From Candidatus Nealsonbacteria bacterium (lineage in GTDB: Bacteria > Patescibacteriota > Minisyncoccia > Minisyncoccales > JAGGXC01), in the NCBI GenBank assembly GCA_026396195.1, contig JAPLXH010000005.1:3710-67709 (forward strand): a DNA stretch of 64,000 nt, written 5' to 3'. Shown in pieces: positions 8,394-63,998 of this stretch. Each line of letters opens with the position of its first letter. Positions within the stretch are counted from its first letter, which is position 1. A model generated the notes under the pieces. The model was given only the letters and a program-made list of their open reading frames with translations, was not told the origin of the DNA and ran no database searches. A program made the position numbers and the translations under genes.

Positions 8394-9899
<1,506 letters not shown>

Positions 9900-10436: not shown

Positions 10437-10575
10437 GGAACAAGTAGGGATGGAACAGTTCCCTGCCTGCCGGCAGGCAGGGATTCTGCCTAGGTCCACT
10501 GAAAGTTCGAGTCCCGTAGTCCCCGCCGACAACACCGCTTTTTAATAAGGCGGTTTTTTGGTAGAATAAAAGAAC
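10437..10575 (+). repeat. cassette-array boundary repeat A
   Basis: Contains the 22-nt palindrome ccctgcctgccggcaggcaggg (10461-10482), gttcgagtcccgtagtccccgcc (10505-10527), the hairpin ccgc...ggcgg plus a T-run, and TGGTAGAAT 8 nt before the ATG. Confidence 0.7.
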
Positions 10576-11847: not shown

Positions 11848-11991
11848 AACAGGTTCTAACATCGTCAAATTGTCGCCAAATCTACCATATAGACCCCTCC
11901 ATTCTCCCTAATTCTGGTTCTAATGTCGTCTACGAGTCCCCGCTAAGCAAAACCTTTTTAATAGAGCGGTTTTTTGGTAGAATTAAATAAT
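11848..11991 (+). repeat. cassette-array repeat C
   Basis: aacaggttctaacat, ccattctccctaattctggttctaat, gtctacgagtccccgc (11928-11943), hairpin plus T-run, TGGTAGAAT. Confidence 0.75.
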
Positions 11992-12615: not shown

Positions 12616-12762
12616 AGTAGTTCCTAACATAGTTCATTAATGGACTAAATCCATCATAAAAACCCCATTATTTTCCCTAATCCTGGTTCTAACGTTGTCT
12701 ACGAGTCCCCGCAAACAACAACCGCTTTTTAGTAAGGCGGTTTTTTGGTAGAATGAAACAAT
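12616..12762 (+). repeat. cassette-array repeat D
   Basis: agtagttcctaacat, ccccattattttccctaatcctggttctaac, gtctacgagtccccgc (12697-12712), hairpin plus T-run, TGGTAGAAT. Confidence 0.75.
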
Positions 12763-13899
12763 ATGAATAAAAAAATATCTACACCAATAGCAATTGGTAT
12801 TATATTAATCTTATCTGTTCTTTTGGGCGGTTTTACCTTGTGGCAATGTTCAGAGATACAGAAAGAGAAAATTGAACCAACATTATTAGAGAATAAAGAG
12901 CAAACAACAGATTTGAAAGAAACGGCACAAAATCTTTTTAGTGATTATTTAGATAAATATAAAAATACAGATACGACCCTTAATGACAGAATTAAAAGTT
13001 ATATAATTAATGATATTAAAATAGATATGACCGAAGACGATTGTTTTGGATTTACTGTTAATTATTCAGTTGAGACCCTTAAAGACCAAAATAATAATTT
13101 AACTAATTGGGTGGCTGGTAATGGTAAAGAGGATGGCAATTGGGTTAAAAATAAACAAGAATTTGTAGATGCAATTAAAGAAAATGGGAATTATAAAATT
13201 AGAGAAATGGGAACGGGCAGAGGTTCAATAAGTTGTATGGGTGAGCAAGACGAAACCGCTGATTGGAAGACTTATAGTAATGAGGAGTATGGGTTTGAGA
13301 TAAAGTATCCCGAAAAGTGGCCTATAGACGAGGATTATAATAACGAGAATTATTACGCTAATGTTACCATTAGAGAGCAAAATGGTGAAGGTAAAATGGT
13401 TGACTTATATATTTATAATAATCCCAATAATTTATCTCTTACTCAATGGCTTGATTTTTATGACCAAAATATATGCGGTTCCGTTGGAGAAAGAAAACCA
13501 ATTTCAATTGCTGGTGTTGAAGGAATTAAAGGCGCACATTACTGCGGCGATTCTTATTTAGAGGGAATTTTTTTATTAAAGGAAAATAAAGTTTATAATA
13601 TCAATTTTCTGTGGGGTGGGATGGAAGAAACCGTAGGACCTATCAAAGATGAAGAAGGAATTTATAACCAAATGCTTTCTACTTTTAAGTTTATTGAAGA
13701 AACTACTGATAATATGAAAAATTGTGAAATTGATTCAGATTGCGTTGGTTCGGCTTGCTGTCACCCTGATTCATGCATTAATAAAGCATATAGAGGAGTG
13801 TGCAATGTGTTCTGTACTCAAAGTTGTGAAGGACCGTTAGATTGCGAAAAGGGAAATTGTGCGTGTGTTAATAACAAATGTGTAATAATAGCTAAATAA
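12763..13899 (+). CDS. secreted/anchored protein with Cys-rich C-terminus (cassette 4)
   Basis: Same 19-aa N-terminus as the 11032 gene. The C-terminal 60 aa contain 14 Cys (CEIDSDCVGSACCHPDSC...CACVNNKC). Confidence 0.6.
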   Translation: MNKKISTPIAIGIILILSVLLGGFTLWQCSEIQKEKIEPTLLENKEQTTDLKETAQNLFSDYLDKYKNTDTTLNDRIKSYIINDIKIDMTEDDCFGFTVNYSVETLKDQNNNLTNWVAGNGKEDGNWVKNKQEFVDAIKENGNYKIREMGTGRGSISCMGEQDETADWKTYSNEEYGFEIKYPEKWPIDEDYNNENYYANVTIREQNGEGKMVDLYIYNNPNNLSLTQWLDFYDQNICGSVGERKPISIAGVEGIKGAHYCGDSYLEGIFLLKENKVYNINFLWGGMEETVGPIKDEEGIYNQMLSTFKFIEETTDNMKNCEIDSDCVGSACCHPDSCINKAYRGVCNVFCTQSCEGPLDCEKGNCACVNNKCVIIAK

Positions 13900-32832: not shown

Positions 32833-33090
32833 ATGTTTTATACTTATCTTTTGGAGAGTAATATCGATAAAAGTTGGTACATTGGTTATACAAAAGATTT
32901 AAGAGAAAGATTTCTAAGTCACAATAAAGGAGAAAACATAGCAACAAAGAATAAAAAACCATGGAGATTAATTTATTATGAAGCATATATAAATATAATT
33001 GATGCCAAGAAAAGAGAAAAATTTTTAAAATCAGGTTCAGGAAGAAAATTTCTTAAACGGCAAATTAGTAATTATTTAATAAAAACCTAA
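32833..33090 (+). CDS. stand-alone GIY-YIG nuclease-domain protein
   Basis: FYTYLLES...WYIGYTKDLRERFLSHN matches the GIY...YIG...R...N pattern. 85 aa. Confidence 0.8.
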   Translation: MFYTYLLESNIDKSWYIGYTKDLRERFLSHNKGENIATKNKKPWRLIYYEAYINIIDAKKREKFLKSGSGRKFLKRQISNYLIKT

Positions 33091-33193: not shown

Positions 33194-33358
33194 ATGGCAA
33201 AAAAGAAAAGACCGTTTGTAAAACTTCAGTGCCAAACCTGCAAAAGAGTTAATTATCATGTTAATAAATCCAAGGCTTCGCGCGAGAAAAAACTGGAATT
33301 GAAAAAATTTTGCAATTGGTGCAAAAAACATACGCCTCATAAAGAAAGCAAGCGTTAG
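33194..33358 (+). CDS. rpmG: 50S ribosomal protein L33
   Basis: MAKKKRPFVKLQCQTCKRVNY...CNWCKKHTPHKE zinc-ribbon L33. The ORF-track start at 33128 overlaps the tRNA. Confidence 0.85.
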   Translation: MAKKKRPFVKLQCQTCKRVNYHVNKSKASREKKLELKKFCNWCKKHTPHKESKR

Positions 33359-33523
33359 GCACCTACTATCTTTTTGAATGGGAAGAGATAATAAATCTAA
33401 AAGAACTAACCGCTGTTTAATATGGCGGTTTTTCTTATAACGTAGATTTTGAGACTCCTCTATTTTTGTCTAAATTTAACCTAATTAAATAGTCGTACAA
33501 GGCGAATTTAACAGGTTTTAAAT

Positions 33524-33550
33524 AAAAAAGCCGGACGGATTCCGTCCGGC
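33524..33550 (-). terminator. intrinsic terminator of the 33585-33875 gene
   Basis: The minus strand reads gccggacgg-aatc-cgtccggc followed by tttttt. Confidence 0.75.
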
Positions 33551-33584
33551 AAATTGCATCCGATTCAAGGTAAATCAGTACATC

Positions 33585-33875
33585 TCATCCATTTATCTTA
33601 TTATATACTTTTTCGTCAACCCAGTAGTATGGTCCTTTTGGATATCCCGGATGACTCTTGAGGTCTGTAATACCAAACTTGGCAAACAGTCTGCTCCTAA
33701 TTTGGTCCCGCGGAAGACTTGATAACTCTTGGATTTCGGCCTCGGTCAGTTTAACAGAACCAATCTCAGTTTCCTCGCTATGGTTTTCCCGGGAAAGTGC
33801 AATAGTTTTATCAAGATGTCTTACTCCGTCTCTTTCTCCATCTGCGTTTTCTTTCTCGAATAAATACAATTTCAT
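33585..33875 (-). CDS. hypothetical 96-aa protein
   Basis: ORF with GGAGG 7 nt upstream of the ATG and its own GC-rich terminator. Confidence 0.55.
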   Translation of the reverse strand: MKLYLFEKENADGERDGVRHLDKTIALSRENHSEETEIGSVKLTEAEIQELSSLPRDQIRSRLFAKFGITDLKSHPGYPKGPYYWVDEKVYNKING

Positions 33876-34033
33876 TTTCTTGCCTCCTTTTTTAATAAGC
33901 CATTTCCACCCTACCTCTATTTTCGCTTAATTTCAAATAAAAAATCGCCCTATAAGCGATGAACGTATAATTTGCAATCTATATTTTGCACGACATATTG
34001 CATAAAGAATCGCCATTTAGGCGGTTTTTTGGT

Positions 34034-34080
34034 TTGACAAATTAGTGATTTAGAGTAAAAAGATAGAGGAGGTTGAAATA
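34034..34080 (+). promoter_or_regulatory. conserved promoter/SD module (TTGACA-16-TAAAAA-GATAGAGGAGG)
   Basis: TTGACA 34034-34039, TAAAAA 34056-34061, AGGAGG 34067-34072, TTG start 34081. Near-identical modules occur at 36738-36786 and 62376-62424. Confidence 0.6.
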
Positions 34081-35022
34081 TTGAAAGGAATAAAGATTTT
34101 TTCAGGAAAGTCTCATCGGAAATTAGCAAAAAGAATTTGTCGGCAATTAGAGGTTCCGTTAAGCCCTTTGAAAATTGAGGAATATGGTAATGGATGTTCT
34201 GAAGTAATTTTAGAGAAATATGTTCGCAACAAAATCGTCTTCTTGATTCAGACATCTTCACCCAAAAATTTATCTAAACATCTATTGCAGCTTTTACTGA
34301 TGACTGAAACTGTTTCAGAATGTGGTGCTAAAAAAATAATCGTAATAATGCCTTATGTTTCCTATTCTCGTTCCGACAAGAAGCACAAGAAGTGTCGTAA
34401 TAAAATGATTATCGCTGGAAAGTGGTTAATAAGGGCTTTGGAGAAAAACGGAATGAATAAATTCATCGGAATTGATTTTCATTCAAAGAGGTTCGAGAAG
34501 TTTTTCTCCCCAGAAACAGAAGTTCATCATCTTTCCGCTTTGCCTTTAATTGTTAAAGCTCTGGAAAAAAAGAACCTTAACCCTGAAAGTACTATCATAT
34601 TAGCTCCCGATAAAGGAGCTTGTAAAAAGACTTCCCATTTGGCAAAAGAACTAAAAATACCGTTTGGTTGGGTTGAGAAAAAAAGAATAAGCGATACTAA
34701 GGTTGAAATAGAGAAGATACACGGTGAAGTCGCTGGCAAAGATGTCATTGTTTTAGATGACGAGATTTCTACTGGAGGCACCATTAAAACTTTAGCCGAT
34801 AAACTTACAAAACTGAAAGCGAGAAGTTTAACTATTGCAGTTACTCATGGCCTTTTCTTAGGAAAAGCACTCAAGAATTTTCAAAAGATTAAAATACTAA
34901 AAAAAATCATAGTTACTGATACTGTTCCCATTTCAAAAAAAGTCAAACGCCATTTGCCATTGGAGATTCTGCCTATAGACGAACTTTTAGCTGAAAAAAT
35001 AAAAGAAATTTGTAAAAATTAG
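34081..35022 (+). CDS. prs: ribose-phosphate pyrophosphokinase-like (divergent PRPP synthetase)
   Basis: IKIFSGKSHRKLAKRIC, PYVSYSRSDKK (compare PYxGYARQDRK) and VIVLDDEISTGGTIKT (PRPP loop). TTG start. Confidence 0.65.
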   Translation: MKGIKIFSGKSHRKLAKRICRQLEVPLSPLKIEEYGNGCSEVILEKYVRNKIVFLIQTSSPKNLSKHLLQLLLMTETVSECGAKKIIVIMPYVSYSRSDKKHKKCRNKMIIAGKWLIRALEKNGMNKFIGIDFHSKRFEKFFSPETEVHHLSALPLIVKALEKKNLNPESTIILAPDKGACKKTSHLAKELKIPFGWVEKKRISDTKVEIEKIHGEVAGKDVIVLDDEISTGGTIKTLADKLTKLKARSLTIAVTHGLFLGKALKNFQKIKILKKIIVTDTVPISKKVKRHLPLEILPIDELLAEKIKEICKN

Positions 35023-35113
35023 AGGGGATATTTTTTAAACATCCTCTTTTTTATTTTAAATTATTGTTTGACTTTTTAACCTATATTTTATAAATTTAAT
35101 AAAGAAAAACGAT

Positions 35114-35184
35114 GGGGGCATAGTTCAACGGTAGAATAATGGTCTCCAAAACCATTGATCTCTGTTCGAATCAGAGTGCCCCCG
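35114..35184 (+). tRNA. tRNA-Trp(CCA)
   Basis: GGGGGCA TA GTTC AACGGTA GAAT A ATGGT CTCCAAA ACCAT TGAT CTCTG TTCGAAT CAGAG TGCCCCC G. Confidence 0.95.
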
Positions 35185-35324
35185 CCTTCGCTTCGCCGAA
35201 GCTTTAGCGTAGGCGAGCTTCGTCTCAGCTACGGCGAGGCAAGCCCGCCAACAAAAATATCCGAAATTTTTTCGGGTTTTTTGTTATTATGCTATAATAA
35301 ATAAAAATAATTTACAAAAATTTT

Positions 35325-36731
35325 ATGTCATTTGTCTATACGGGAATCGGCGTTTCCCAAAAAGATAATTTAATAGAAGCTGCCAAAGAAGCAGCCGAAC
35401 AAGCAAAAAAAGAATTGGGAGAAGGAAAAATCCCAAAGCTTTTAATGTTTTTTTGTATTTTTACCTATCCTATAAAAGAATATAAAAAAGCAATAGAAAC
35501 CGTGTATGGCGTTTTCGGCGATAAAGAGGTCCCTTTAGTCGGAGGCAGTGTTATAGGTTTTTTTGCCAAGGATAAATATTATTTCGACGTAAAAATGGTT
35601 GGCAGGATTGTCGGTTCTATGATACAAGGATTGGGCAAAGTTTTTAAACCGTTTAAATTTAACGGAGTTGGTGTGGTGGCTTTGTCTTCAGATTATTTAA
35701 GCATAGGAACAGGAATAGGTTTGGATGTAGATAAAAACCCTGAAAAAGCCGGTAAAGATTCAATTACTCAGGCCTTAGATAATTTGCAATATAATCCCTC
35801 GGTTGCTTATCTGGCAATGTTAAAAAAAGGCGCTCGGGACCTTACCAAATTTCGGCCAATAAATGGATTTTTGCTGACTCCCGGGTTTTTTCCGAAGGGT
35901 AAAGCCAATACTCTCTTTGATAATCAAATTCTTTCCGGAATAACTTCAATAACCAAGAGAAATGTCAGGTTGGCTGGCGGAGGATTGTGCTCCGAATTTG
36001 TGGTTGATCCAAATCATGTTTTAATATCTCCTGGAAGTGTTTTTTTTAACCACGAAGTTTATCAAAACGCCGTGACATCTATTGTTTTCGGTTCTGATTT
36101 AGAAATCGGATACGGAACCGCTGCCGGAGCTAATCCTTTGGGAGTATCCGTGGTTATTACCAAAGGGGAAGGGTATGTAATTGAAGAATTAAATGGAAAA
36201 CCGGCCGTGTCTTTTTTGGCAGAGATAGTCGGAAAATATACTGATATTAAAAAAGAAACTTTTTTAAACAATCCTTGGATTTTAGCTTTCAAAGGAATTT
36301 ATATGGCTCTTCCCGAGCCTTTAGGGGACTTTTATTGGCCCGTAGTTATAGCCGGCCGGGATGGAGAGAAGATAAAAACAGTTGTCCCTATTAGAAATGG
36401 ATTAGCTTTAAATTTGATAAAAACAGCAGGTAAGTCTGCCGAAGAAGCGCCAAGCCAAGCTACTAAAATGATGATTGAAGACGCTCAGTCTGAAAATTTT
36501 GAATTTGTTTTATTTTCTTCTTGCGCTGGCCGGGGTTCTGTTTTAGGCAAGAAATATTTCCAAGAGATAGAAGGAATTAAAAAAGTTTTAAATAATAAAG
36601 AAACTCCGATTTTCGGCCTTTGTTCTTGCGGGGAACAGGCTTTTTATAAATTAGGACAGGTAGTTGGCACGGCCGGTATTTTTACTTTAATGGGCATTTC
36701 CAATCGTCTTGTTTCTGAAACTAAAGAATAA
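35325..36731 (+). CDS. FIST-domain (FIST_N + FIST_C) sensory protein
   Basis: N-terminal pattern GVSQKDN...PKLLMFFC...PLVGGSV. C-terminal FVLFSSCAGRG...PIFGLCSCGEQ is typical of FIST_C. Confidence 0.6.
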   Translation: MSFVYTGIGVSQKDNLIEAAKEAAEQAKKELGEGKIPKLLMFFCIFTYPIKEYKKAIETVYGVFGDKEVPLVGGSVIGFFAKDKYYFDVKMVGRIVGSMIQGLGKVFKPFKFNGVGVVALSSDYLSIGTGIGLDVDKNPEKAGKDSITQALDNLQYNPSVAYLAMLKKGARDLTKFRPINGFLLTPGFFPKGKANTLFDNQILSGITSITKRNVRLAGGGLCSEFVVDPNHVLISPGSVFFNHEVYQNAVTSIVFGSDLEIGYGTAAGANPLGVSVVITKGEGYVIEELNGKPAVSFLAEIVGKYTDIKKETFLNNPWILAFKGIYMALPEPLGDFYWPVVIAGRDGEKIKTVVPIRNGLALNLIKTAGKSAEEAPSQATKMMIEDAQSENFEFVLFSSCAGRGSVLGKKYFQEIEGIKKVLNNKETPIFGLCSCGEQAFYKLGQVVGTAGIFTLMGISNRLVSETKE

Positions 36732-36783
36732 ATTTTATTGACTAAATTATTAATTTAGAATAAAAAGATGGAGGAGGGTTGAA

Positions 36784-37104
36784 ATGAGTCCTTTAAAAGA
36801 TGAAAATACTGATAAATCCCAAAAGCTAAAAGCAGAAGATTATTGCGTTGAATTTAGAATCCTGGCAAAAATTTACGAATACACAGAAATCAAGAAAAAA
36901 CCAATTTGGTTTTCAAGGTTGGTTTATTGTTTCAGGGGAAAGATTTTTAGAAACGAAATATCTAAAGCAGAAGACAGATTATATCATTGGGGCATAATTG
37001 ATAAAAAGTATAAAGACGCAGAGGGTTTGTGGACGTGTTGTTATCTTATTGAAGACGAAGCAGTGGATTTTGCAAGAATGCTTTACGAGAAAATAAATTT
37101 ATGA
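36784..37104 (+). CDS. hypothetical 106-aa protein, possibly winged-helix-like
   Basis: ORF with a strong SD (GGAGGAGGG). The wHTH guess is based only on length and charge pattern. Confidence 0.4.
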   Translation: MSPLKDENTDKSQKLKAEDYCVEFRILAKIYEYTEIKKKPIWFSRLVYCFRGKIFRNEISKAEDRLYHWGIIDKKYKDAEGLWTCCYLIEDEAVDFARMLYEKINL

Positions 37105-37234
37105 AAATTTTCTCGTTTTTTTATTGACAAATAATGTTTTTTAGAGATAATTAAAAAAGGAGGAAAACTCTTTTTTTAATTGGAGTTAGTACTTTTAAAT
37201 AAAAAAAACATGGAAAGAAAAGGAAGGTGAAAAA

Positions 37235-38056
37235 ATGAGTGGAAAAATGAACGCGAAAGATAGGCTGATTTTAGCTTTAGACCCCAATAGAGAAGAAATA
37301 AAAAAATGGATGAGAACGGAGCCGACAAATAAGGTTAAAGAAAAAATAAGAGAAAAAGTAGTTTCTATTCTGGACGAGCTGGAAGGAGAAGTTGGTTTTG
37401 TGAAGGTAAACTATGTTTCCAGCATGGTTCCTGATATTATTGATATCATTCAGCAAAGGAAAATTGGTGTTTGGCTGGACGGAAAATACAAAGACATTCC
37501 AGGAACTGTTGAAGGATGGACAATGGGTGCAATTCTGAACAACGTAGATAAAATAACAATTCACGCTGACGGTGGATTAAAAATGATTCAGTACGCAACA
37601 GAAATAGCAAAAATAACGAAAGAAATAAAACAGTTTCGAGACATTGAAATTTTTGCAATCAGCGTTTTAACCAGCATTGGCCCTGAAGTTCTTAGTAACG
37701 AACTGAAAATACCCGGAAATCTTATGAATAAAGTTATGGTATATGCCAAATTAGCTGAAAAAGGAGGAGTGGATGGAGTTGTGGCCTCTGCTATGGAATC
37801 GCCCGTTTTAGCAAGAAAATTAAAATCAGGAATGCACATTATTACACCAGCGATAACACCAAACTGGGCAATAAAAAGGGATGATCAAAATAAATCTAGA
37901 ATTACTACTCCTTACCAAGCAATAATCAGCGGATCAACTAAAATTGTAGTAGGCAGCGCCATTATTGATGCTGAAACATACGGAAAAACGAGAATTGAAG
38001 CAGCTCAAGCCATTGTAGCTGAAATTGATCAAGCCTTGACCAGCAGGAATTTCTAG
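37235..38056 (+). CDS. pyrF: orotidine-5'-phosphate decarboxylase family
   Basis: LILALDP, WLDGKYKDIPGTV (D-x-K-x-x-D-I) and DDQNKSRITTPYQAIISGSTKIVVGSAI (DQxR...TP...G). Confidence 0.75.
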   Translation: MSGKMNAKDRLILALDPNREEIKKWMRTEPTNKVKEKIREKVVSILDELEGEVGFVKVNYVSSMVPDIIDIIQQRKIGVWLDGKYKDIPGTVEGWTMGAILNNVDKITIHADGGLKMIQYATEIAKITKEIKQFRDIEIFAISVLTSIGPEVLSNELKIPGNLMNKVMVYAKLAEKGGVDGVVASAMESPVLARKLKSGMHIITPAITPNWAIKRDDQNKSRITTPYQAIISGSTKIVVGSAIIDAETYGKTRIEAAQAIVAEIDQALTSRNF

Positions 38057-38069
38057 GGAGGAATTTTTG

Positions 38070-38741
38070 ATGACACCAGTCACCAATAGTGAAGATAAAA
38101 TTTTAGAACCTTTTAAAAAATATGATGCTATCTGGTTGCACGACGGTAATTCTAAAAATCCTCACGCCGAATTGACCACAGGAAAATGCAGTAACGCTTA
38201 CTTTAATTGTCGTAGAGTTCTAAAAGATCCATTCGCCAATTTTAATTTAGCCAGAGAACTGGTTCTGCAATTAAAGCAAAAAGGAATAGAAAACATTGAT
38301 TGGGTTATAGGCTCTCCGATGTCGGCAATAACTTTTTCTTACGAAGTAGCTAAGGGGTTTGAAGCTTTTCACGGTTTTACCGAGAAAGATCCTCTTGATC
38401 CCAAGAAAATGGTTTGGAAAAGTGAAACCATCCCAGAGGGTTCTAATGTTCTACAGATTGAAGAATTAATTACAACGAGTCATACTTTCAAAGAAGTTCG
38501 TCGGGCTATCCTAGAAGGAAACCTAGAAAAAATCAATCTTCTGCCAATAATCGGAACTATTATTCATCGTCCGCCAAAACTCCCCGTGGAATACGAAATC
38601 AATGGTCAGAAAATTGAAATCGTGGCTTTGTTTGAAAAAGAAGTTTGGGCAATAGATCCTTTAGAATGTCCTTTATGCAAGCTTGGTTCTGTCCCTTATC
38701 CTCCGAAAAGTCATTGGAAAGAGTTAATCGGAAAAAAATAA
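38070..38741 (+). CDS. pyrE: orotate phosphoribosyltransferase-like type I PRTase
   Basis: HAELTTGKCSNAYFNC (compare HFxLSSGxHSxxY), VLQIEELITTSHT PRPP-binding loop. Directly follows pyrF, with GGGAGG overlapping its stop codon. Confidence 0.65.
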   Translation: MTPVTNSEDKILEPFKKYDAIWLHDGNSKNPHAELTTGKCSNAYFNCRRVLKDPFANFNLARELVLQLKQKGIENIDWVIGSPMSAITFSYEVAKGFEAFHGFTEKDPLDPKKMVWKSETIPEGSNVLQIEELITTSHTFKEVRRAILEGNLEKINLLPIIGTIIHRPPKLPVEYEINGQKIEIVALFEKEVWAIDPLECPLCKLGSVPYPPKSHWKELIGKK

Positions 38742-38752
38742 CCAAAATATAA

Positions 38753-38782
38753 CCCACTGGAACTATTTCAGTGGGATTTTTT
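38753..38782 (+). terminator. intrinsic terminator after pyrF-pyrE
   Basis: cccactg-gaactattt-cagtggg followed by atttttt. Confidence 0.7.
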
Positions 38783-38846
38783 ATTATTCGTGATTTGCTT
38801 GACTTTTTATATTTAGATGTTAAAATATTAAAAGGAGGTTAGTACA

Positions 38847-39608
38847 TTGTCAAATATAAATGATAAAACTTTAAATCAGAACGATACAGAAAATAATTTT
38901 AGAAAAAGATTGATCACTTTCGCTGTTTTATTAATCCCAATAGGATTTCTTTTTTTGATTATTATTCCGTCTTTTTTTTCAAAATATTTTCCTTTTTTAA
39001 CGAGTTTTGCTTTAATTTTTTTAGCTTGGCAATGCGTTAAAGAAATTGGGAAAATAGAAAAAGGCAGAAATCAAGAAAAGTTATCCTTGCTGTCAATTTT
39101 TTTCGCGATATATATATTTATCGCCCTAGGCATGTATTCCTATTTGATATTCAGCGAGAACGGGTTTTTGTGGCTTATAGTTGCAATTATTGGCGTCGCT
39201 TTTTTTGATTCGTTCTCTTATCTGATAGGAAAAACTGTGCGATTTTTTATGAATTTTTTATTCCTGAAAAAATTTATTAAAAAACAAATAAAAATTCATA
39301 AAATGGTTCCGACTATTTCTCCCAAGAAAACTTGGGAAGGAGCAGTAGGAGGCTTTATCGCTTGCTTAATAGCCGTTGGCATATCGGGGAAATTACTTCT
39401 TTTATTGGATTTTTGGCAGATAATAATTACAGGAACTTTTATCGCCGTGCTTGCTTTTCTAGGCGATTTATTCGAATCGTTTTATAAAAGAAAAATGGAA
39501 ATAAAAGATTCGGGAAGTGTTTTACCGGGCCACGGTGGTTTACTCGACAGAATCGACAGCGCCTTATTGGTTATTTTTGGGATCATTCTTTTAAAGCTGA
39601 TTTTCTGA
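38847..39608 (+). CDS. cdsA: phosphatidate cytidylyltransferase family (CdsA-like)
   Basis: SPKKTWEGAVGG, FESFYKRKMEIKDSG and PGHGGLLDRIDS signature blocks. TTG start after AAAGGAGG. Confidence 0.8.
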   Translation: MSNINDKTLNQNDTENNFRKRLITFAVLLIPIGFLFLIIIPSFFSKYFPFLTSFALIFLAWQCVKEIGKIEKGRNQEKLSLLSIFFAIYIFIALGMYSYLIFSENGFLWLIVAIIGVAFFDSFSYLIGKTVRFFMNFLFLKKFIKKQIKIHKMVPTISPKKTWEGAVGGFIACLIAVGISGKLLLLLDFWQIIITGTFIAVLAFLGDLFESFYKRKMEIKDSGSVLPGHGGLLDRIDSALLVIFGIILLKLIF

Positions 39609-39733
39609 TCTTTCTAAAAATGGGCAGGTAATTTATATTTGCCCATCTTTTTATTTACTTGACATCTGTCTTAATATGAGTTATTATGTAATCAGCAATT
39701 TCAAAGGTAAATAATTGCAGAGAGGTAATAGAA

Positions 39734-45910: not shown

Positions 45911-46108
45911 ATGGAGGAAAAAAATTATTATTTAAGAAATTTCGTGCCGGTAATTATGGGCTGGTTTCTTTTGTGCGGTCTTTTTGGTTTTTTCTTTATT
46001 TTGGCCCGAGCCAGTTTTACGACAACCGACAAGGAAAAAGTTTTTATCATTAGTTGGTTTCTATTGGTGGTAATAATCCAAATTTATACTTTTTTATTCA
46101 GCGGATGA
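45911..46108 (+). CDS. two-TM ORF ending at an in-frame TGA (possible 5' part of a longer gene)
   Basis: 65-aa ORF. Same frame as 46361-46951, and the 84 codons between them contain no stop. Confidence 0.45.
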   Translation: MEEKNYYLRNFVPVIMGWFLLCGLFGFFFILARASFTTTDKEKVFIISWFLLVVIIQIYTFLFSG

Positions 46109-46360
46109 TTAAAATTAATCGGAATTAATTTTGAAAACAGAGATTCTTTTTTAGTCAACAAGCATATTTTAAACAATAAAATTAATCCTGAAATCTCCGA
46201 TAAAGATTTAAAAGACCTTTTTTACGCTTTAAAAAAAGAACCGTTTATTATTTTAAAAAGAACCTTTATTTACGGATTAATCGGCGCTATTTTTTTTGCC
46301 GTTATAATATACGTATATAAAATTTCATTTTTAGACATACTCACGATTTTAAACGGCGGC

Positions 46361-46951
46361 TTGATTTCTTTGATAGTTTTGACTCTTTTTTTGATATTTT
46401 TCGTGGAAAGATTTTTTAGCGGTTTCTTAAGAGAGTGCAGAAAAATTCTGAAAGAAAGGGGAATTTATCCGGGCGAAGAAGAATGGTTGTCGACCCTTAA
46501 AAGCAGGTTCAATTATTTTATTATTCTTCTTTTTTTGGTGGTTGTTATCGTGGTAAGCTTTGTTTCGATTTTTAATCTTTATTTGCTGGCCATTATCGCC
46601 CTGGGCCTTTTAATTTCGATCATGATAAGCAAGGAATTGTTCGCCTCCGTTTATTTGGTTTTTGAAGAAGTTAAAAATTTCAGCACCGAACTTTCTCAGA
46701 AAGAAAAAGCGGAATATTTCACAGGCAGTTCTTATAAAGAAGTTTTTAATTTATCCAAAGATTTAAATAAAAGCGCTCAAGATATTTATACTGCCAGAGA
46801 CAAAGAAAGAAAAGCCAAAAAAGAATTGCAGGAAAAATTGGATGAACTGGATAAATGGTACAGGTTTTCAGTCGGCCGTGAGTTAAAAATGGTGGAGTTA
46901 AAAAAAGAGATATCAAAACTCAAAGAGGAAAAAGACGATTCTGATAAATAA
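46361..46951 (+). CDS. membrane coiled-coil protein with C-terminal LDKWYR-VGRELKM-ELK module (true start uncertain)
   Basis: The ORF-track TTG start lies in the middle of a TM helix. The upstream frame is open back to the TGA at 46106. Confidence 0.55.
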   Translation: MISLIVLTLFLIFFVERFFSGFLRECRKILKERGIYPGEEEWLSTLKSRFNYFIILLFLVVVIVVSFVSIFNLYLLAIIALGLLISIMISKELFASVYLVFEEVKNFSTELSQKEKAEYFTGSSYKEVFNLSKDLNKSAQDIYTARDKERKAKKELQEKLDELDKWYRFSVGRELKMVELKKEISKLKEEKDDSDK

Positions 46952-46978: not shown

Positions 46979-47689
46979 ATGGAAAAATTAGCGATAGAAG
47001 AATCATTGTTTTTATATAAAAATATTTTCGATAAAATAATCGAACCGGTGGTTATTTTTGACCCAAATGGAAATATCAACTATGTCAACGAAACATTGAT
47101 TAAAATAGGAGAATACGGCTTAAAAGAAATTCAATCAAAGCCGATTATTTTTTTGCTTCCCGACCGGGAAAAAAATCGTATCGAGAGTTTAATCCGAGAG
47201 GTTTTAAAAGAAGGCAAGACTTACCGAGATTTTAACACTTTTTTCCAGACAAAAAATAAAAAGGAGATACCCATTGCTCTTACTTTAATTCCGTTATTGG
47301 AAGGAAAAAAAATAATCGGAGGATTTGCCATTATTGTTGATATAAGACAATTGGAGGGTTTGCTTGAAGGTTTAAATCGGGCCAGGTCGGAATTAGAGCA
47401 AAGAGTAAAAGAAAGAACCCGTGATTTGGAACAAAAAACATCAGAACTGGAAAAAGCGAAGATGGCCATTGAGGAAGCAAAAAACATTCTTGAAGTTAAA
47501 GTGGCCGCCAGAACCCGCGAGTTGAAAGAGCTTAATGAAAAACTGGAAGAAAAAGTCGGGCAAAGGACTAAAGAGCTTCAAGAAAAATTAAATGAACTTG
47601 ATAAATGGTACAGATTAACGGTTGGCCGGGAGTTAAAAATGATAGAATTAAAGGAAGAAATAAATAAATTTAAAAAAAGAATGTTGTGA
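46979..47689 (+). CDS. PAS-domain protein with coiled coil and the same C-terminal module
   Basis: PAS-like FDKIIEPVVIFDPNGNINYVNETL...G. The C-terminus is ELQEKLNELDKWYRLTVGRELKMIELKEEINKFK. Confidence 0.65.
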   Translation: MEKLAIEESLFLYKNIFDKIIEPVVIFDPNGNINYVNETLIKIGEYGLKEIQSKPIIFLLPDREKNRIESLIREVLKEGKTYRDFNTFFQTKNKKEIPIALTLIPLLEGKKIIGGFAIIVDIRQLEGLLEGLNRARSELEQRVKERTRDLEQKTSELEKAKMAIEEAKNILEVKVAARTRELKELNEKLEEKVGQRTKELQEKLNELDKWYRLTVGRELKMIELKEEINKFKKRML

Positions 47690-48237
47690 TTGCAATTGAA
47701 AAAAAAATAGAAAACAGAAAAATAGCCATTGTTATTTCTTTCAGGGATTTTAGGGATGAGGAGTATTTTATTTCAAAAGAAATTTTAGAAAAAGCCGGAG
47801 CTAAAATATTTACCGTAAGCGACTTGCCGGGCAAGGCTTTCGGAAAAGAGGGAGGGGAAGCGGAAGTAGATTTATTATTGGAAAAATTAAATCCGGAAGA
47901 ATTTGATGCCGTAGTTTTCATGGGAGGGCCGGGAGCGTTGAAGCATTTGGATAATCCGCTTTCTTATAATATAGCGAAAGAAACTGTTTTGAAAGAGAAA
48001 ATATTAGCCGCAATTTGTATCTCACCCGTTATTTTAGCTAAATCAGGCGTTTTAAGGAATAAAACGGCTACGGTTTGGACGGGAACCTTTGATAAGAGCG
48101 CTTTAAAGTTTTTTAAGGAAAATTGGGTAAATTACCAAGATGGAGAGGTGGTGATAGAGGAAAAAATAATTACTGCCAGAGATTCCGAAGCAGTTCAAAA
48201 ATTTGCCGGAGCCATAATTACGGCATTGACTCTTTAG
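47686..48237 (+). CDS. DJ-1/PfpI family protein (GTG start)
   Basis: AAICISP nucleophile-elbow Cys and VFMGGPGA. Confidence 0.75.
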   Translation: MIAIEKKIENRKIAIVISFRDFRDEEYFISKEILEKAGAKIFTVSDLPGKAFGKEGGEAEVDLLLEKLNPEEFDAVVFMGGPGALKHLDNPLSYNIAKETVLKEKILAAICISPVILAKSGVLRNKTATVWTGTFDKSALKFFKENWVNYQDGEVVIEEKIITARDSEAVQKFAGAIITALTL

Positions 48238-48268: not shown

Positions 48269-48421
48269 TTGACAAGTTAATATAGTTTTATATATAATGG
48301 CATTATCCCGTAGACAGCAGGCTCTGCGACAAGCTCATAAGACCTGCCGAGGAAAAAGAATATATGTTTTTATTCTATTTTTCGTCTGCGGAGAGCAGAC
48401 TTTTTGATTTATAAAAAAAAC
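48269..48421 (+). promoter_or_regulatory. rplJL promoter and leader with terminator-like hairpin (putative L10 autoregulatory leader)
   Basis: TTGACA (48269-48274), 16 nt, TATAAT (48291-48296). The leader has CAGCAGG/CCTGC pairing and GTCTGC-ggaga-GCAGAC+TTTTT (48384-48405), just before the ATG at 48422. Confidence 0.45.
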
Positions 48422-52162: not shown

Positions 52163-52293
52163 GGTTTATTATATCGTTCTTTTTCTATTATAACGGACTG
52201 CGTCCGGTATATCAAATTTAATAAAAGCCATTGACGAATTTTTAATTTTTAGTATAAATAAATTAGTTCCAAAGATAAAAAGGAGGTGAGAAT

Positions 52294-52539
52294 TTGCCGA
52301 TAGGCTTTGTTTTATTAACAGTGAGACTTGGTCAAGAAAAAGAAATATTTAAAAAGCTTGTAAAGATTCCGGAAATTTTGGAGACGAATCCCGTTTTGGG
52401 AGAGTGCGACTTTTTACTGAAAATTAAAGGAAAAAACCGTAAAGAAATGTCAAAAATGATTATGGAAAAGATTAAATCCATAAAGGGCACCAGGTTAGCC
52501 GAATTTTTGCCTAGCAAAAAATATCGAGAAGGGAAATAA
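52294..52539 (+). CDS. small Lrp/AsnC-ligand-binding-domain-like protein (TTG start)
   Basis: 81 aa. The pattern GFVLLTV...E..F.KL.KIPEILETNPVLGECDFLLKI resembles stand-alone AsnC-type RAM domains. AAAGGAGG lies 7 nt upstream. Confidence 0.5.
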   Translation: MPIGFVLLTVRLGQEKEIFKKLVKIPEILETNPVLGECDFLLKIKGKNRKEMSKMIMEKIKSIKGTRLAEFLPSKKYREGK

Positions 52540-52584: not shown

Positions 52585-52656
52585 GGGCACTTAGCTCAGC
52601 GGCAGAGCGCTTCGTTCACATCGAAGAGGTCGTAGGTTCAAATCCTGCAGTGCCCA
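52585..52656 (+). tRNA. tRNA-Val(CAC)
   Basis: GGGCACT TA GCTC AGCGGCA GAGC G CTTCG TTCACAT CGAAG AGGTC GTAGG TTCAAAT CCTGC AGTGCCC A. Confidence 0.95.
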
Positions 52657-52751
52657 CTTTTTACAAGGAATAGCGATTTTAAAGCCATTGGGCTTGTTTT
52701 TTTTTATGTTTGTGTTAAAATATGATTATAAAAAATTAGGAGGCATAAAAG

Positions 52752-53639
52752 TTGTTTAAAAAATTAAAAGAAATAGCTGAAGGAAGAACCGATTTGTTAA
52801 CCATCAGATGTTCAAATGCTTGGCTGGAAAGAAATCCGGAACCTACTATTTTCGTGGAATTAAACGACGAGATGGAAGTTTTAATATCCTCTCGAGATCG
52901 AAGAGAGCATTTCAAAACCGCTTCCCCTTGGTTGGCTGAACAGCTTGAGAAGTGGAGGAACTCTGACGTCCAAAAAATAACAGTAGCTACCAAAGAATAT
53001 CCCCTTGAGATCTTTGCCGGCGACACCGCTTTAATTTTGGTAATCGAAGGCAAAAGATATCTTTACAGCGCCCATAGAGATATTTACCCGAAAGGCTGGT
53101 TGCTTCCCGGCGGTTGTTCCAGGTCCAGAGAAGAGTTATTGAATCCGAGAATCCTTATGTCCCGGGAATGCGCCGAAGAGGTGTTGATTACAGATCAGGA
53201 AGGAAAAATCTATAATTTTTCCAATTCAATCAACGAAATGATGGAAAACGTTAAGGCCTGGCAGAAAGAGGGATCATTAACTCCGGGAAATATGATTCCG
53301 TTATCAGTCAAAGAGTTGTCACTGGCCAAAGGCGATGTCCGCAATATAGTAATAAGATTAAACGGGCAAGAATCAAAAATAGAAAACATTGCAGTGACGA
53401 TTGATGCTAAAATAGCCGAGGTGAGTACCTGTATTTATTTGGAAGCAGTTCTTCCCATCAAACTTAACGAATTAAGACTTTTCGATGGTGAGAAATTGCC
53501 CGACAAGACTCTTTTGAATCGGCCCATAAAGCTGACTGATGAACAAGGTGATTGTCCGGCTCTGTTTTCGCGGGGAAACAATCTTTTTATCTCTGGCTGG
53601 GTTACTCCGGCAACAGCAGAAAAAGCATTTGTTTTCTGA
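52752..53639 (+). CDS. hypothetical protein with a weak Nudix-box-like segment (TTG start)
   Basis: LPGGCSRSREELLNPRILMSRECAEEVLI loosely fits Gx5Ex7REUxEExGU, with a 3-residue insertion. Strong SD (TAGGAGG). Confidence 0.45.
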   Translation: MFKKLKEIAEGRTDLLTIRCSNAWLERNPEPTIFVELNDEMEVLISSRDRREHFKTASPWLAEQLEKWRNSDVQKITVATKEYPLEIFAGDTALILVIEGKRYLYSAHRDIYPKGWLLPGGCSRSREELLNPRILMSRECAEEVLITDQEGKIYNFSNSINEMMENVKAWQKEGSLTPGNMIPLSVKELSLAKGDVRNIVIRLNGQESKIENIAVTIDAKIAEVSTCIYLEAVLPIKLNELRLFDGEKLPDKTLLNRPIKLTDEQGDCPALFSRGNNLFISGWVTPATAEKAFVF

Positions 53640-53718
53640 CATAAATAATAAAAAACAAGAGAGGTGGTTCAATTAAAATCATCTCTTTTTCTTTTATATT
53701 AATAAACATGTATCTCTA

Positions 53719-60777: not shown

Positions 60778-60932
60778 AAAATTTCACCCTTCGATGGGCT
60801 CAGGGTGACACCGAGAGAAGCCGAAGTGGTAAAATGTAAATTGTAGATTGTAAATTGAAAAACCGGCCAGAGGGACGGTTTTTTGTTTGACAAAATATTA
60901 ATTTAGATTAGAAATAAATAGGAGGTATATAA

Positions 60933-61451
60933 TTGAAAGGAAGAATAGAAGCAAGAAAGTTTTTTAGTACCTTAATAATAATTGTTTTGGTAATTATGAC
61001 GACCGGTTGTACAGAAAAAAAGACAGAAACTACCGGAACAGAAGTTATTAGCGACCTTTTTAATGATCCATGGAATGCTACTATAGAATTTACTTATGTG
61101 CCACCTATTAGCTCTGAATACAATCCGAATCCTCAAAGTTATAACTATCTTCGAGGTCGAGTTTCTCATGTTAATCCAGCTGATTGGCGAGTAGCAGTTT
61201 ATATCTATGTAAACTTCGGATGGCGGACAAAGCCTTATTTGGACAACACTACAACAATTATTTTGCCTAATGGAACTTGGGCTTGTGATATTACTACCGG
61301 AGGAATAGACTACGCCGCAACAGAAATAGCAGCTTTCCTTATACAGTCTTGTTATTATCCACCGCTTATGGAAGGAAAATATAATGTACCATTACCATAC
61401 AATTTATATAAATTTTCTGTAGCGCATGTAAATACAACACGCTCTCTTTAA
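60933..61451 (+). CDS. putative lipoprotein (TTG start)
   Basis: Signal peptide ending VIMTTGC (lipobox-like). TAGGAGG SD. Confidence 0.5.
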   Translation: MKGRIEARKFFSTLIIIVLVIMTTGCTEKKTETTGTEVISDLFNDPWNATIEFTYVPPISSEYNPNPQSYNYLRGRVSHVNPADWRVAVYIYVNFGWRTKPYLDNTTTIILPNGTWACDITTGGIDYAATEIAAFLIQSCYYPPLMEGKYNVPLPYNLYKFSVAHVNTTRSL

Positions 61452-61644
61452 AAAATTTACGGTGTAATTTATTTTGCACCGTTTTTTTATTATCAGTAAA
61501 ATTTTTCTAAACATTACAACATAAAGTATACGAATAAAACAACCGCCAATCAGGCTCCTCTTCACTAAAGTTACAGACGGACAAAGGGTTTTTTAGTTTG
61601 ATAAATTATAAATTATTATGTTATGGTATAAATGGTGATAGATT

Positions 61645-62316
61645 ATGGAAGATCAATATGTTGAAGGAAAAGAAATTATAGTCGGTTTCAGCGGTTTGTT
61701 GGAAAAGGTAGTATTAAAAGGAGGGCCCTCTGTAGTTAAACAGTATGTCCGATTGGCAGAGAAAGCAGCAGAAATGTTAAACGTACCTTTAAAAGATTTA
61801 ACAGGAAACTCGAAAATAGGAATTGCTTCCTTGGAGAGAGATGCATATCCTGTTTTTACGATGAGAGACAGAGTTCGTTTTAAAGGTAAATCTTTTTCTG
61901 AAGTGAAAGAGAGATTAGAAAAAATGATGAAATATATGTCGTCATCTGATCCGGTAGTTCTTATGGGAGACTATCTCAACGCAGAAGCAACCTTCAAGAA
62001 CGAAAAAGAATTAGCAAATGTACAAGAAGCAGCGTTAGAGCTAAAAGAAAAGTATAGTCTCGCCACTTCATATTTAGCATCCTTTTACGACGCGACGGAC
62101 TTACTTGAAGATACTTACAGAACAGGAAGGATTGATCCGAAAGAAGGTTTCGTAAAGGTTACCACTATTCATTTTTGGCTTCCCCCTTTTAAAAGAGGTT
62201 TCCTGAAGGAGATAATCGTTGAATGGTCAGTATCTTTACACTGCAAAGTAAATAGAAAAAAGATTGAAACACCTTTTTACTTGCCATGCAATGAACCTAA
62301 AAGGCTTATTTTTTAA
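61645..62316 (+). CDS. hypothetical protein
   Basis: 223-aa ORF with no recognised motif. Confidence 0.5.
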   Translation: MEDQYVEGKEIIVGFSGLLEKVVLKGGPSVVKQYVRLAEKAAEMLNVPLKDLTGNSKIGIASLERDAYPVFTMRDRVRFKGKSFSEVKERLEKMMKYMSSSDPVVLMGDYLNAEATFKNEKELANVQEAALELKEKYSLATSYLASFYDATDLLEDTYRTGRIDPKEGFVKVTTIHFWLPPFKRGFLKEIIVEWSVSLHCKVNRKKIETPFYLPCNEPKRLIF

Positions 62317-62421
62317 AGCCTTTTTTTATTTCCAAAATCTCCATCCCAAAATCGCCTAAAGAGCGATTTTTTTGATTGACAAATTAATTATTTAAAGTAA
62401 AAAGATGAAGGAGGGTAAAAA

Positions 62422-62811
62422 ATGGTCGAGGTTAAGATTCTAAAAGAAGAAGATGATTTTATAGAGCTTGATATAGGATTTACAGGAGATAGCCGCATCA
62501 CTCAATGGGAAGCAGCGAAGAGAGCATTGTTTAAGAACAAAAAAGTGTTTTACACTTTTAATGATGAGAGAATCAGAATAACTCCGCAAGAAGCTAGGGC
62601 TTATATTTATCCGGATATAGTGAGAGGAAAAACATCTGATTTAGAAAAAAAAGAAGGAATGTTGATAAAAGAACTTCTAAAAATAAGAGAAAAAAGAGTT
62701 GCTTTGGGAGAAAAAGAAGAAGGACGCTTTGAAAAACTTCTAGAAACAAGAAAAGAAATAAAGGAAATGAAGAGAATCATGAAGTTCTTAAAAAAAGATT
62801 TAAAAGAATAG
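62422..62811 (+). CDS. hypothetical protein with charged C-terminal helix
   Basis: 129-aa ORF behind the conserved promoter/SD module (62376-62421). Confidence 0.5.
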   Translation: MVEVKILKEEDDFIELDIGFTGDSRITQWEAAKRALFKNKKVFYTFNDERIRITPQEARAYIYPDIVRGKTSDLEKKEGMLIKELLKIREKRVALGEKEEGRFEKLLETRKEIKEMKRIMKFLKKDLKE

Positions 62812-62934
62812 CCCGAAATAATATTTTCTGGGCTTTTTTTATTTTTGGAATCTCCATACCAAAATCGCCTAAAGAGCGATTTTTTAGTAGAATTAAAGAA
62901 AGTTAAAATTTATTTATCTTAATTTATTATTTTT

Positions 62935-63515: not shown

Positions 63516-63641
63516 TTGACAGAAGAAACAATTTACGATAAATTATATTTTGCCAGGGAGAGGTTTTTAAGGAGATAGTTGTTTGCCTTCGTTATTTATA
63601 TCCCCCTCCTCTCTGGCGGAATTTAAAGGAGGTCTTTAAAA
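63516..63641 (+). promoter_or_regulatory. promoter plus leader with anti-SD / anti-anti-SD arrangement
   Basis: TTGACA (63516-63521), 17 nt, TAAATT (63539-63544). GCCAGGGAGAGG is at 63552-63563, CCCCCTCCTCTCTGGC at 63602-63617, and the SD AGGAGG at 63627-63632. Confidence 0.45.
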
Positions 63642-63998
63642 ATGAAAAAAGATGATCAAGAAATATTGAGAGACATAGAAGATCTATGCAGGCTTGAAGG
63701 AATAATATCTAATTTAATAAAATCAAAGAATACATTGCGTTTGATGAGTAACACAAGAATTGACATAGTAGCAAACTGGTTAAAAACACACAGCGATGAA
63801 GAGATAAAAGATCTTTTATCTAATGAGTGGAAAATAATGGAAGAAATTCTAGGGGTAGCCAAGCAGTTCTCTGATCTTAAAAAACTGGAAACTATAACAC
63901 AGGACTTATTATCAAACATACCCGAAATGGATCAAAAAACAGTAAACAAGATAAAAAAAATACTTGATAAAAAAGATCAGGTTAAAAGCAGAAAATAA
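63642..63998 (+). CDS. hypothetical protein
   Basis: 118-aa ORF ending at TAA 63996-63998, just inside the window. Confidence 0.5.
   Translation: MKKDDQEILRDIEDLCRLEGIISNLIKSKNTLRLMSNTRIDIVANWLKTHSDEEIKDLLSNEWKIMEEILGVAKQFSDLKKLETITQDLLSNIPEMDQKTVNKIKKILDKKDQVKSRK

Follow-up and report, generated by a model that had tools for sequence, protein, structure and literature searches.

Strong Shine–Dalgarno motifs and frequent TTG starts mark self-contained gene cassettes in a Candidatus Nealsonbacteria genome whose 16S rRNA lacks the anti-Shine–Dalgarno sequence

The Shine–Dalgarno (SD) sequence acts by pairing with the 3′ tail of 16S rRNA. Genomes without an anti-SD are generally also without SDs (Amin et al. 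2018, PMC6107228). Within the Parcubacteria the anti-SD motif is detected in just 48% (Tsurumaki et al. 2022, RNA, PMC9297842), and Campbellbacteria, Wolfebacteria and SR1 appear in a 2024 survey under "SD-scarce organisms lacking CCUCC" (category iv), with SD genes at 2-7% (PMC10783764). In the Bacteroidetes, Flavobacterium johnsoniae has A-rich, Kozak-like leaders, a sequestered anti-SD and a few SD-led genes, such as rpsU (PMC7797042). Here we describe 64,000 nucleotides of a Candidatus Nealsonbacteria metagenome-assembled genome (MAG; assembly GCA_026396195.1, contig JAPLXH010000005.1, positions 3,710 to 67,709; this whole stretch is hereafter called the window), in which a 16S rRNA gene lacking the anti-SD is accompanied by a sizeable minority of genes with strong GGAGG-type SDs, half of which precede TTG start codons. 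We take the source organism to belong to the Parcubacteria, within the Candidate Phyla Radiation (CPR). Ten window proteins are identical residue for residue to NCBI records from a 104-kb contig of a Candidatus Nealsonbacteria MAG (locus tags NTU58_), the G+C content is ~35%, and the + strand holds nearly all genes.

Set against SD:anti-SD initiation, the window has GGAGG at 6-9 nt from start codons well above chance (12 genes, where 1.05-1.14 are expected), and CCUCC is absent from its 16S tail. It resembles the anti-SD-less, SD-scarce Parcubacteria and other CPR bacteria (PMC9297842; PMC10783764) in that its CCUCC-less tail recurs in a relative and in that 48 of 67 genes have no SD and 7 of 67 a weak one. 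In the published SD-scarce CPR genomes the few per cent of SD genes are treated as background (PMC9297842, PMC10783764), whereas the residual SDs of the window are strong, well spaced, present in 18% of genes, tied to TTG, located in flexible regions and conserved within gene families. As in the Bacteroidetes, core genes with A-rich, SD-less leaders stand beside a small strong-SD set; unlike in the Bacteroidetes, where the anti-SD is present but masked and can be read by a ribosome subpopulation, here it is absent, and the SD genes are flexible metabolic genes (prs, pyrF, a phosphoribosyltransferase [PRTase] gene and cdsA), Nudix-like or hypothetical genes, not ribosomal protein genes. Our literature search found no paper on a conserved class of SD + TTG cassettes in anti-SD-less CPR bacteria; the loss of the anti-SD is already known, and the two-class start structure is, as far as we could find, apparently new.

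Two classes of gene starts beside an anti-SD-less 16S rRNA

We curated 67 protein-gene starts and scored positions -23..-1 of each as duplex energy against the canonical tail ACCUCCUUA. The energies are bimodal and bear out the two start classes that an earlier note, made from the letters of this DNA, had described: 12 genes lie at or below -9 kcal/mol, 7 are intermediate and 48 lie above -6 kcal/mol, and the most strong SDs obtained over 300 shuffles was 4. The strong-SD starts are at 33875(-), 34081, 36784, 37235, 38070, 38847, 52294, 52752, 59544(-), 60933, 62422 and 63642; all 13 GGAGG-led start sites named in the note exist, the remaining one, 54039, having a weaker AAGGAG (-7.9 kcal/mol) that places it among the intermediates. 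Counted from the motif, there are 18 intergenic GGAGG on the two strands, 13 of them with a start codon 4-9 nt downstream, and 12 of these 13 belong to annotated SD-class genes. TTG is the start codon in six of the 12 strong-SD genes and in none of the other 55 (Fisher p = 9e-6); these six TTG codons, likewise recognized in the note, are the sole plausible starts of their genes, and the translations agree exactly with the NCBI protein records.

All SD genes lie beyond 33.5 kb, with none among the 32 genes before that point (p = 2e-4). Such clustering in one half of the window is what a chimeric or contaminated contig, joining DNA of an SD-using organism to CPR DNA, might produce, but SD and non-SD genes are interleaved, base composition is uniform, a Logan contig matches 33125-35239 exactly, and the block FIST-pyrF-PRTase-cdsA is found with its SDs in three independent assemblies (ENA, Logan, JGI), so that chimerism is effectively excluded and we give an artefact next to no weight. 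By-eye reading had suggested that the SD genes are more G+C-rich, and this proved mistaken: G+C is 0.352 in the SD class vs 0.348 in the others (p = 0.97), and G+C at third codon positions (GC3) is 0.315 vs 0.324 (p = 0.35). Codon usage in the SD class has slightly more NNA for Ala, Thr and Ile (naive permutation p = 0.004; p = 0.06 at matched codon number). With G+C and GC3 the same and this size-matched result for codon usage, we rejected the idea of foreign, compositionally distinct genes.

The genes for L25, L31, S2, EF-Ts, L10, L7/L12, L33, LysRS, SerRS, GatB, DnaK and DnaJ have no SD and are A/T-rich upstream, just as had been reported for the housekeeping genes. Across the 48 non-SD genes, A accounts for 50-70% at positions -2..-7 (60-70% at four of the six), and at least 11 have a TAnAAT-type -10 box (e.g. 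TAGAAT) ending 5-9 nt 5′ of the ATG; a -10 box this near the start would be consistent with leaderless core mRNAs. Core genes thus appear either leaderless or preceded by A-rich, unstructured leaders, with ATG or GTG starts. The core loci of relatives have no strong SDs (0/17-18), and in ~20 Parcubacteria loci strong SDs are always in the minority and tend to cluster, so that two classes of starts characterize the lineage and are not peculiar to this contig.

A side observation concerns a recurring unit at 10536-10590, 10992-11046, 11950-12005 and 12723-12777, and also at 62866-62895, that consists of a hairpin CCGC...GCGG, a T-run and GGTAGAAT, with an ATG 8 nt on. The unit has the appearance of a terminator joined to a promoter from which leaderless mRNAs would arise, and it lies 5′ of a paralogous family of secreted proteins (N-terminus MNKKISTPIAIGIILILS...); the T-run + GGTAGAAT motif also occurs in many Parcubacteria loci (L018, L042, L082, L084, L085), the last three of which belong to GCA_041643025.1, GCA_043814215.1 and GCA_043813215.1.

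The absence of an anti-SD, also reported in the earlier note, was confirmed by alignment:

8395..9899, + strand: 16S rRNA gene, placed by Rfam alignment; the 3′ tail after helix 45 is GGAUCAAUUAUUUA, consensus GGAUCACCUCCUUU, with no anti-SD

Helix 45 is intact and the tail is without CCUCC. Downstream of this gene, the only 16S gene in the window, come a terminator, tRNA-Ile and tRNA-Ala, with no 23S gene there. A relative assembled independently at JGI (L014; EF-Ts 89% identical) shares this anti-SD-less tail, on an 804-kb contig (Ga0265297_10000012) whose 16S locus is syntenic. In L015, a more distant Parcubacterium whose EF-Ts is 73% identical, the tail is a different one, GGAUCAUUACAUUCU, again without CCUCC and downstream of a LAGLIDADG intron, and another Parcubacterium (L026) retains a near-canonical tail, GGAUCAUCUCCUUU. 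The loss of the anti-SD, which made the SDs appear paradoxical in the earlier note, is an already published trait of a subgroup of Parcubacteria (PMC9297842, PMC10783764).

Could the ribosomes of this organism nevertheless obtain a CCUCC elsewhere? One candidate was an anti-SD sequestered in the 16S trailer, where a hairpin at 10088-10125 (CCCCCCUCCC as one arm, GGGAGGGGG as the other) holds the sole CCUCC near the rRNA; it lies in the spacer terminator, and we rejected it, as an unrelated hairpin with no CCUCC occupies this place in the relative, which suggests that the window hairpin is probably a plain terminator. Pairing of a new kind of SD with the actual tail, AAUUAUUUAAUUUU, was rejected too: scored against this tail, the 48 non-SD genes have a duplex-energy profile without a positional peak upstream of their starts. 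A second, unseen source of anti-SD, e.g. another 16S copy with a canonical tail whose ribosome subpopulation reads the SD class, gains some room from the fact that 64 kb of the genome were inspected and that a few bacteria, such as Alteromonas, have heterogeneous 16S tails (PMC6107228). Against it stand the syntenic, equally anti-SD-less locus in the 804-kb contig of the relative and the lack of a CCUCC-tailed 16S in any fetched locus of close relatives. CPR genomes, moreover, normally have a single rRNA gene set, and we consider a second source very unlikely.

Several further observations touch the translation genes. In L015 (15360-16200) an intron that codes for a LAGLIDADG endonuclease splits the 16S gene near its 3′ end, within AAGUCGUA|ACAAGG, and the 3′ exon is also without an anti-SD. 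Directly after rpmE, a peptide chain release factor (4817-5566, - strand) is only 249 aa long (PCRF + RF-1 domains), a short form that is kept at 249-250 aa in L014, L015 and the P0151 contig, with no programmed frameshift site apparent. In the region of 48290-48414 and 47686-48237 there are an L10 leader (Rfam RF00557) and rplJ-rplL, with DJ-1/PfpI and not rplK-rplA as the preceding gene; that the usual L11-L1 genes are not upstream of L10 in the 64-kb window is consistent with the reported overlap between anti-SD loss and Parcubacteria lacking uL1. The stretch 45911-46951 is split into open reading frames (ORFs) of 65 and 196 aa where the orthologue in relatives is single (345-346 aa; L008 17199-18236, L010 2875-3915), and is either a pseudogene or an assembly error.

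Cassette anatomy and variable gene content among close relatives

For comparison of gene content we used syntenic loci of close relatives at ~80-90% nucleotide identity (L008/L009/L013 and L010-L012); for 59-64 kb no locus of a relative was available. The SD-led features of the window are as follows.

33347-35100, no strand: strain-specific rpmG/tRNA-Trp island, absent from L008/L013 and L009, the blastn alignment breaking off at 33346 and resuming at 35101
33585-33875, - strand: orf96, SD + ATG, own terminator, in the rpmG/tRNA-Trp island
34010..34083, + strand: flagged site upstream of prs; hairpin CGCCATTTAGGCGG + T-run, TTGACA, conserved spacer AAATTAGTGATTTAGAG, TAAAAA, GATAGAGGAGG, 8-nt spacer, TTG
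34081-35022, + strand: prs, SD + TTG, own terminator, in the rpmG/tRNA-Trp island
36738..37145, + strand: orf106 cassette; second module copy at 36738-36783 and orf106 at 36784-37104, within the pyrF promoter region; absent from L008
37124..38056, + strand: pyrF; module-like promoter TTGACA-16-GATAAT-TAAAAAAGGAGG, leader hairpin, own weaker SD GGAAGGTG before ATG at 37235
38056..38741, + strand: pyrE-like PRTase gene, SD GGGAGG, ATG at 38070; L008 holds an unrelated PRTase gene in this slot
38799..39608, + strand: cdsA; promoter TTGACT-16-TAAAAT, AAGGAGGT, TTG at 38847, terminator 39620-39646
52294-52539, + strand: stand-alone AsnC/Lrp ligand-binding-domain gene (Pfam), SD AAGGAGGTG + TTG; insertion feature 52219..52539 directly before tRNA-Val, absent from L010
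52752-53639, + strand: orf295, AGGAGG + TTG; insertion 52611..53715 after tRNA-Val, absent from L010
54039..55244, + strand: orf401, weaker SD AAGGAG, ATG; present in L010
59305..59557, - strand: orf79, start at 59544, AAGGAGG + TTG, terminator 59286-59268
60887..61482, + strand: orf172, lipoprotein-like; looser module copy TTGACAAAATATTAATTTAGATTAGAAATAAATAGGAGG, TTG at 60933, terminator
62308..62885, + strand: orf129 cassette; third module copy at 62376-62421, orf129 at 62422-62811, terminator; bounded by direct repeats
63628..63998, + strand: orf118+, reaching the window end; AAAGGAGGT, ATG at 63642

The near-identical promoter-SD module that had been picked out at three sites is well founded. 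Positions 34039-34072 and 36744-36777 are 88% identical over 34 nt, promoter spacer included, and a blastn match of 61 nt joins 34021-34081 to 62363-62423, an extent of identity that speaks for homologous copies and not for convergent consensus matches. Looser copies lie at 60887, at 38799 and in the pyrF promoter at 37124, and the whole module is conserved 5′ of a prs orthologue in L017 (64% identical protein). That most SD genes would have their own promoter and terminator held up for the terminators, clear hairpins with T-runs following 8 of the 12; the promoter scan as a whole was not above shuffled expectation, and the -10 element (TAAAAA or TAGAGT) is non-consensus.

In the module family, where 5-12 nt separate the -10 box from GGAGG, the motif might instead be a transcription-level element (promoter, initial-transcribed-region or operator sequence) that merely resembles an SD. 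The pyrF promoter copy at 37124-37163 has the same TTGACA...AAAAAAGGAGG layout with no start codon following, and the conserved spacer AAATTAnTnATTT is partly palindromic, as an operator might be. Outside the module copies, however, GGAGG stands at widely varying distances from the -10 box but always 6-9 nt before the start, the motif also occurs at the pyrF-pyrE junction in a promoterless operon interior, and it matches the SD consensus exactly and goes together with weak start codons; a transcriptional role is, in our judgment, improbable.

In the leaders themselves, a search of 33300-39000 against Rfam at E <= 1 gave only tRNA. A candidate SD-sequestering hairpin upstream of 63642 (CCUCCU...AGGAGG) was rejected, its fold being no better than that of shuffles (z = 0.23). 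Just 3′ of the pyrF promoter lies AAAAAAGGAGGAAAACTCTTTTTTT (37153-37177), whose L008 counterpart is a perfect 10-bp hairpin with a T-run; this leader hairpin could be a promoter-proximal terminator or attenuator. An upstream ORF in the pyrF leader was considered and rejected, its frame not being kept in L008.

Several of the SD-class hypothetical proteins gave no match in Pfam, NCBIfam or PHROG. For orf295, an AlphaFold2 model (pLDDT 91) has weak Foldseek matches to Nudix hydrolases, and a motif resembling the Nudix box can be read in the alignment consensus, hinting weakly at a Nudix-like protein; together with prs, pyrF and the PRTase gene, this would mean that several SD-class genes concern nucleotide metabolism. 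A functional regulon was rejected, since the SD genes beside prs elsewhere look heterogeneous by reading of their translations (LemA-like, TPM-like, methyltransferase, aminopeptidase-like).

Comparison with the relatives places 5 of the 13 SD genes (orf96, prs, orf106, the AsnC/Lrp ligand-binding-domain gene and orf295) within four indels, the segments missing in relatives being 33347-35100, 36767-37145, 52219-52526 and 52611-53715. Insertions adjoin tRNA genes: the first is the rpmG/tRNA-Trp island, and the last two flank tRNA-Val. L008 in turn has an SD gene of its own (417-1334) without a counterpart in the window. Between pyrF and cdsA the PRTase slot is filled by 38070-38741 in the window and by an unrelated PRTase gene in L008 (9233-9895); DNA homology stops right after the shared SD, and apart from an ECPLCK motif close to the C-terminus the two PRTase-family proteins have nothing in common, suggesting a non-orthologous (xenologous) replacement. 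The orf129 cassette is flanked by direct repeats of 65 nt (62308-62372 and 62821-62885, 85% identical), each containing a terminator hairpin of host type, the pattern that one crossover with an incoming, diverged copy would leave. Similarity between lineages is unusually high in the cdsA segment, whose upstream region is 96% identical to L008 vs an intergenic mean of 73%. Finally, L085, with core proteins 47-72% identical (four compared), carries a different SD island in the same trmD/rpmG slot, containing an Inositol_P-family (PF00459) gene and an orf295 homologue.

On this evidence the SD class appears to be part of the flexible genome and enriched there. The label "accessory" given to these genes earlier fits their enrichment in flexible segments and does not fit a class that holds prs, pyrF, a pyrE-like PRTase gene and cdsA. 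Five of the genes lie in indels, one was replaced and one is repeat-flanked; recent acquisition from a foreign donor, on the other hand, is not supported, since the nearest relatives of prs and orf295, so far as they carry names (Staskawiczbacteria and Patescibacteria for prs, CPR or unclassified bacterial MAGs for orf295), appear to be Parcubacterial. In addition, conservation of SD + TTG within gene families across genomes argues against a one-off import.

The hot spot beside prs shows other variation. We read rpmG (L33, 50 aa, below the ORF-length cut-off) at 33195-33347, between tRNA-Thr and the prs island, with an A-rich upstream region and no SD. Relatives keep the order tRNA-Thr, rpmG, tRNA-Trp, and the slot behaves as an insertion hot spot. 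Small genes with a GIY-YIG nuclease domain lie amid its tRNA genes (32833-33090; L008 5693-5965 and 6519-6773), their copy number and position varying among relatives, and these might promote recombination there.

Among known mobile arrangements, the cassettes resemble small genomic islands, and horizontal gene transfer in the Patescibacteria is reported to be mostly from Patescibacteria to Patescibacteria (PMC12455944). Like such islands, the SD genes show presence/absence, adjacency to tRNA genes, direct repeats and donors apparently within the Patescibacteria; unlike them, they show no compositional anomaly, have no integrase or transposase in the scanned genes, and form units of 1-2 genes with their own promoter, SD and terminator. 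Integron cassettes are similar in being single-gene units in series at hot spots with imperfect boundary repeats. They differ in that we found no integrase in the scanned genes and saw no attC-type sites, with no search aimed at attC, and in that the window cassettes carry TTGAC promoters, where integron cassettes are usually promoterless, and have host-type terminator hairpins as boundary repeats. A phage or plasmid origin was rejected: there was no PHROG match, and viral contigs contained neither a match to the module nor a relative of orf295.

Family-level conservation and the fate of an unpaired SD

The SD signal follows gene families. We found 24 homologues of orf295, of which the four with a source name (P0014, P0277, P0280, P0284) are from CPR or unclassified bacterial MAGs, and regard the family as Parcubacteria-specific on this sampling of sequences. 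Homologues in three other genomes (49-72% identical) have a TTGAC promoter, AGGAGG and TTG, so that SD + TTG is conserved in 4/4 family members examined, their neighbours being nearly all SD-less with ATG starts. For prs, the 37 orthologues examined are metagenomic and fall into three states: a strong SD, an AAGGTG form, or operon coupling without an SD. Strong SDs are found, ahead of TTG, GTG or ATG, in L017, L022-25, L029-31, L046 and L049, with ATG in L029 and L049. Only two prs homologues above ~50% identity are named (Staskawiczbacteria and Patescibacteria), and a scan of genome contigs with prs returned only distant Clostridia matches. For the SD-class proteins generally, tblastn against the 85 fetched loci added no orthologues to those in L008 and L010.

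Conservation is not uniform. In L018 the prs orthologue (70% identical) retains only AAAGGT of its SD, and 24 nt upstream an in-frame ATG follows a TATAAT box at a distance of 5 nt, as in leaderless starts of the host type; the pyrF SD weakens from -9.1 in the window to -6.0 in L008. Both cases show signs of decay or conversion toward the host style. The motif is kept in all four orf295 members and several prs orthologues and decayed in L018 prs and L008 pyrF.

We lean, with modest confidence, toward the following explanation. The SD genes would be self-contained expression cassettes exchanged within the Parcubacteria, with an SD that is inherited from the gene pool and cannot pair with the host 16S tail, and hence is an inherited "orphan". 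The observations behind this are the anatomy of the cassettes, the split into two classes, the missing anti-SD, presence or absence in relatives and conservation at the family level. Each cassette combines the hairpin that terminates the preceding unit with a TTGAC-type promoter, a short leader, predicted at 11-17 nt, that contains little besides (A)GGAGG at 6-9 nt from a start that is very often TTG, and a terminator of its own. Such cassettes would form a flexible gene pool swapped among Parcubacteria by recombination at hot spots (tRNA genes, conserved terminator/promoter elements), with the promoter + SD + TTG unit moving and evolving together with its gene family. The orphan SD could be kept by recent arrival together with selection elsewhere in the pool, in lineages with a CCUCC-like tail. 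In the present host we infer that the SD goes unread, and the genes would then be translated via the SD-independent route of all other genes, relying on the shared A-rich context, with an efficiency that is probably low where the start is TTG; in time, starts of the host style would replace their own. How and in which direction the cassettes were transferred is likewise inferred.

A number of points weigh against this explanation. Exact spacing of GGAGG and TTG across orf295 homologues of 49-77% identity has the look of purifying selection, and the hosts concerned may likewise be without an anti-SD, in which case the idea of an unread relic fails. The SDs of pyrF and of cdsA, probably an essential gene, are retained in two anti-SD-less relatives, that of cdsA in identical form, and conversion was seen in one example only (L018). 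L026, with its near-canonical tail, has no strong-SD gene among 9 ORFs, so that an SD-using donor lineage inside the Parcubacteria is not demonstrated. To our knowledge, 50% TTG is far above any ordinary SD-using genome, which means that the SD class cannot have been drawn at random from a donor genome. No integrase, transposase or phage gene was found by Pfam or PHROG in the scanned SD-class genes and their neighbours. The sample, too, consists of 64 kb of this genome and ~20-kb pieces of relatives.

Some of the same facts raise the question of whether GGAGG is functional here after all, with a reader other than the 16S tail (e.g. a different part of the rRNA, a protein of the ribosome or of initiation, or an RNA acting in trans). 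Used in that way, it would constitute a separately controlled, probably low-level translation channel. The spacing of GGAGG to the start is tight, while its distance to the -10 box ranges from 5 to 25 nt, and this points to a constraint tied to translation. The strict association of SD with TTG, the persistence of promoter, SD and TTG in the orf295 family and several prs orthologues amid SD-less neighbours, the SD kept at the pyrE position despite the swapped gene, the identical cdsA SD in relatives without an anti-SD and the similar minority clusters in many Parcubacteria loci all fit a functional motif. Against it, we found no candidate reader, the only CCUCC near the 16S gene being that of the spacer terminator hairpin, which is not conserved in the relative, and A/U-rich pairing with the actual tail shows no peak 5′ of starts. 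The decay or conversion seen in L018 and in pyrF of L008 also speaks against function, the hosts of the conserved homologues may themselves have an anti-SD, and cassette exchange with selection in other hosts accounts for the same facts. We therefore regard an alternative reader as possible but rather unlikely. In its more far-reaching form, in which anti-SD-less Parcubacteria read GGAGG without the 16S tail as a second initiation channel reserved for a mobile, self-contained gene class, the orphan SDs being under selection, we find the proposal a little more doubtful still.

Implications for Parcubacteria

Whichever way the motif is used, the window provides a natural exception to the absence of SDs in organisms lacking the anti-SD: perfect SDs linked to weak TTG starts persist in a sizeable, well-defined minority of genes, and the SD signal behaves as a heritable trait of mobile gene families rather than of the host. 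Mixed start signals of this kind matter for gene calling and annotation in CPR genomes. In L013, for example, the JGI annotation calls cdsA as 101 aa from an internal ATG (10001-10306), whereas the full gene of 253 aa begins at the SD-led TTG, a miscall that presumably arose because the gene caller missed the SD + TTG start.

If, as we favour, the SDs of the exchanged cassettes go unread in this host, these genes would offer a natural system for following the rate at which the expression signals of transferred genes are converted to the host style, and would also measure how much translation is attainable without help from an SD. If they are read, they would reveal a route of SD recognition that is independent of the anti-SD.

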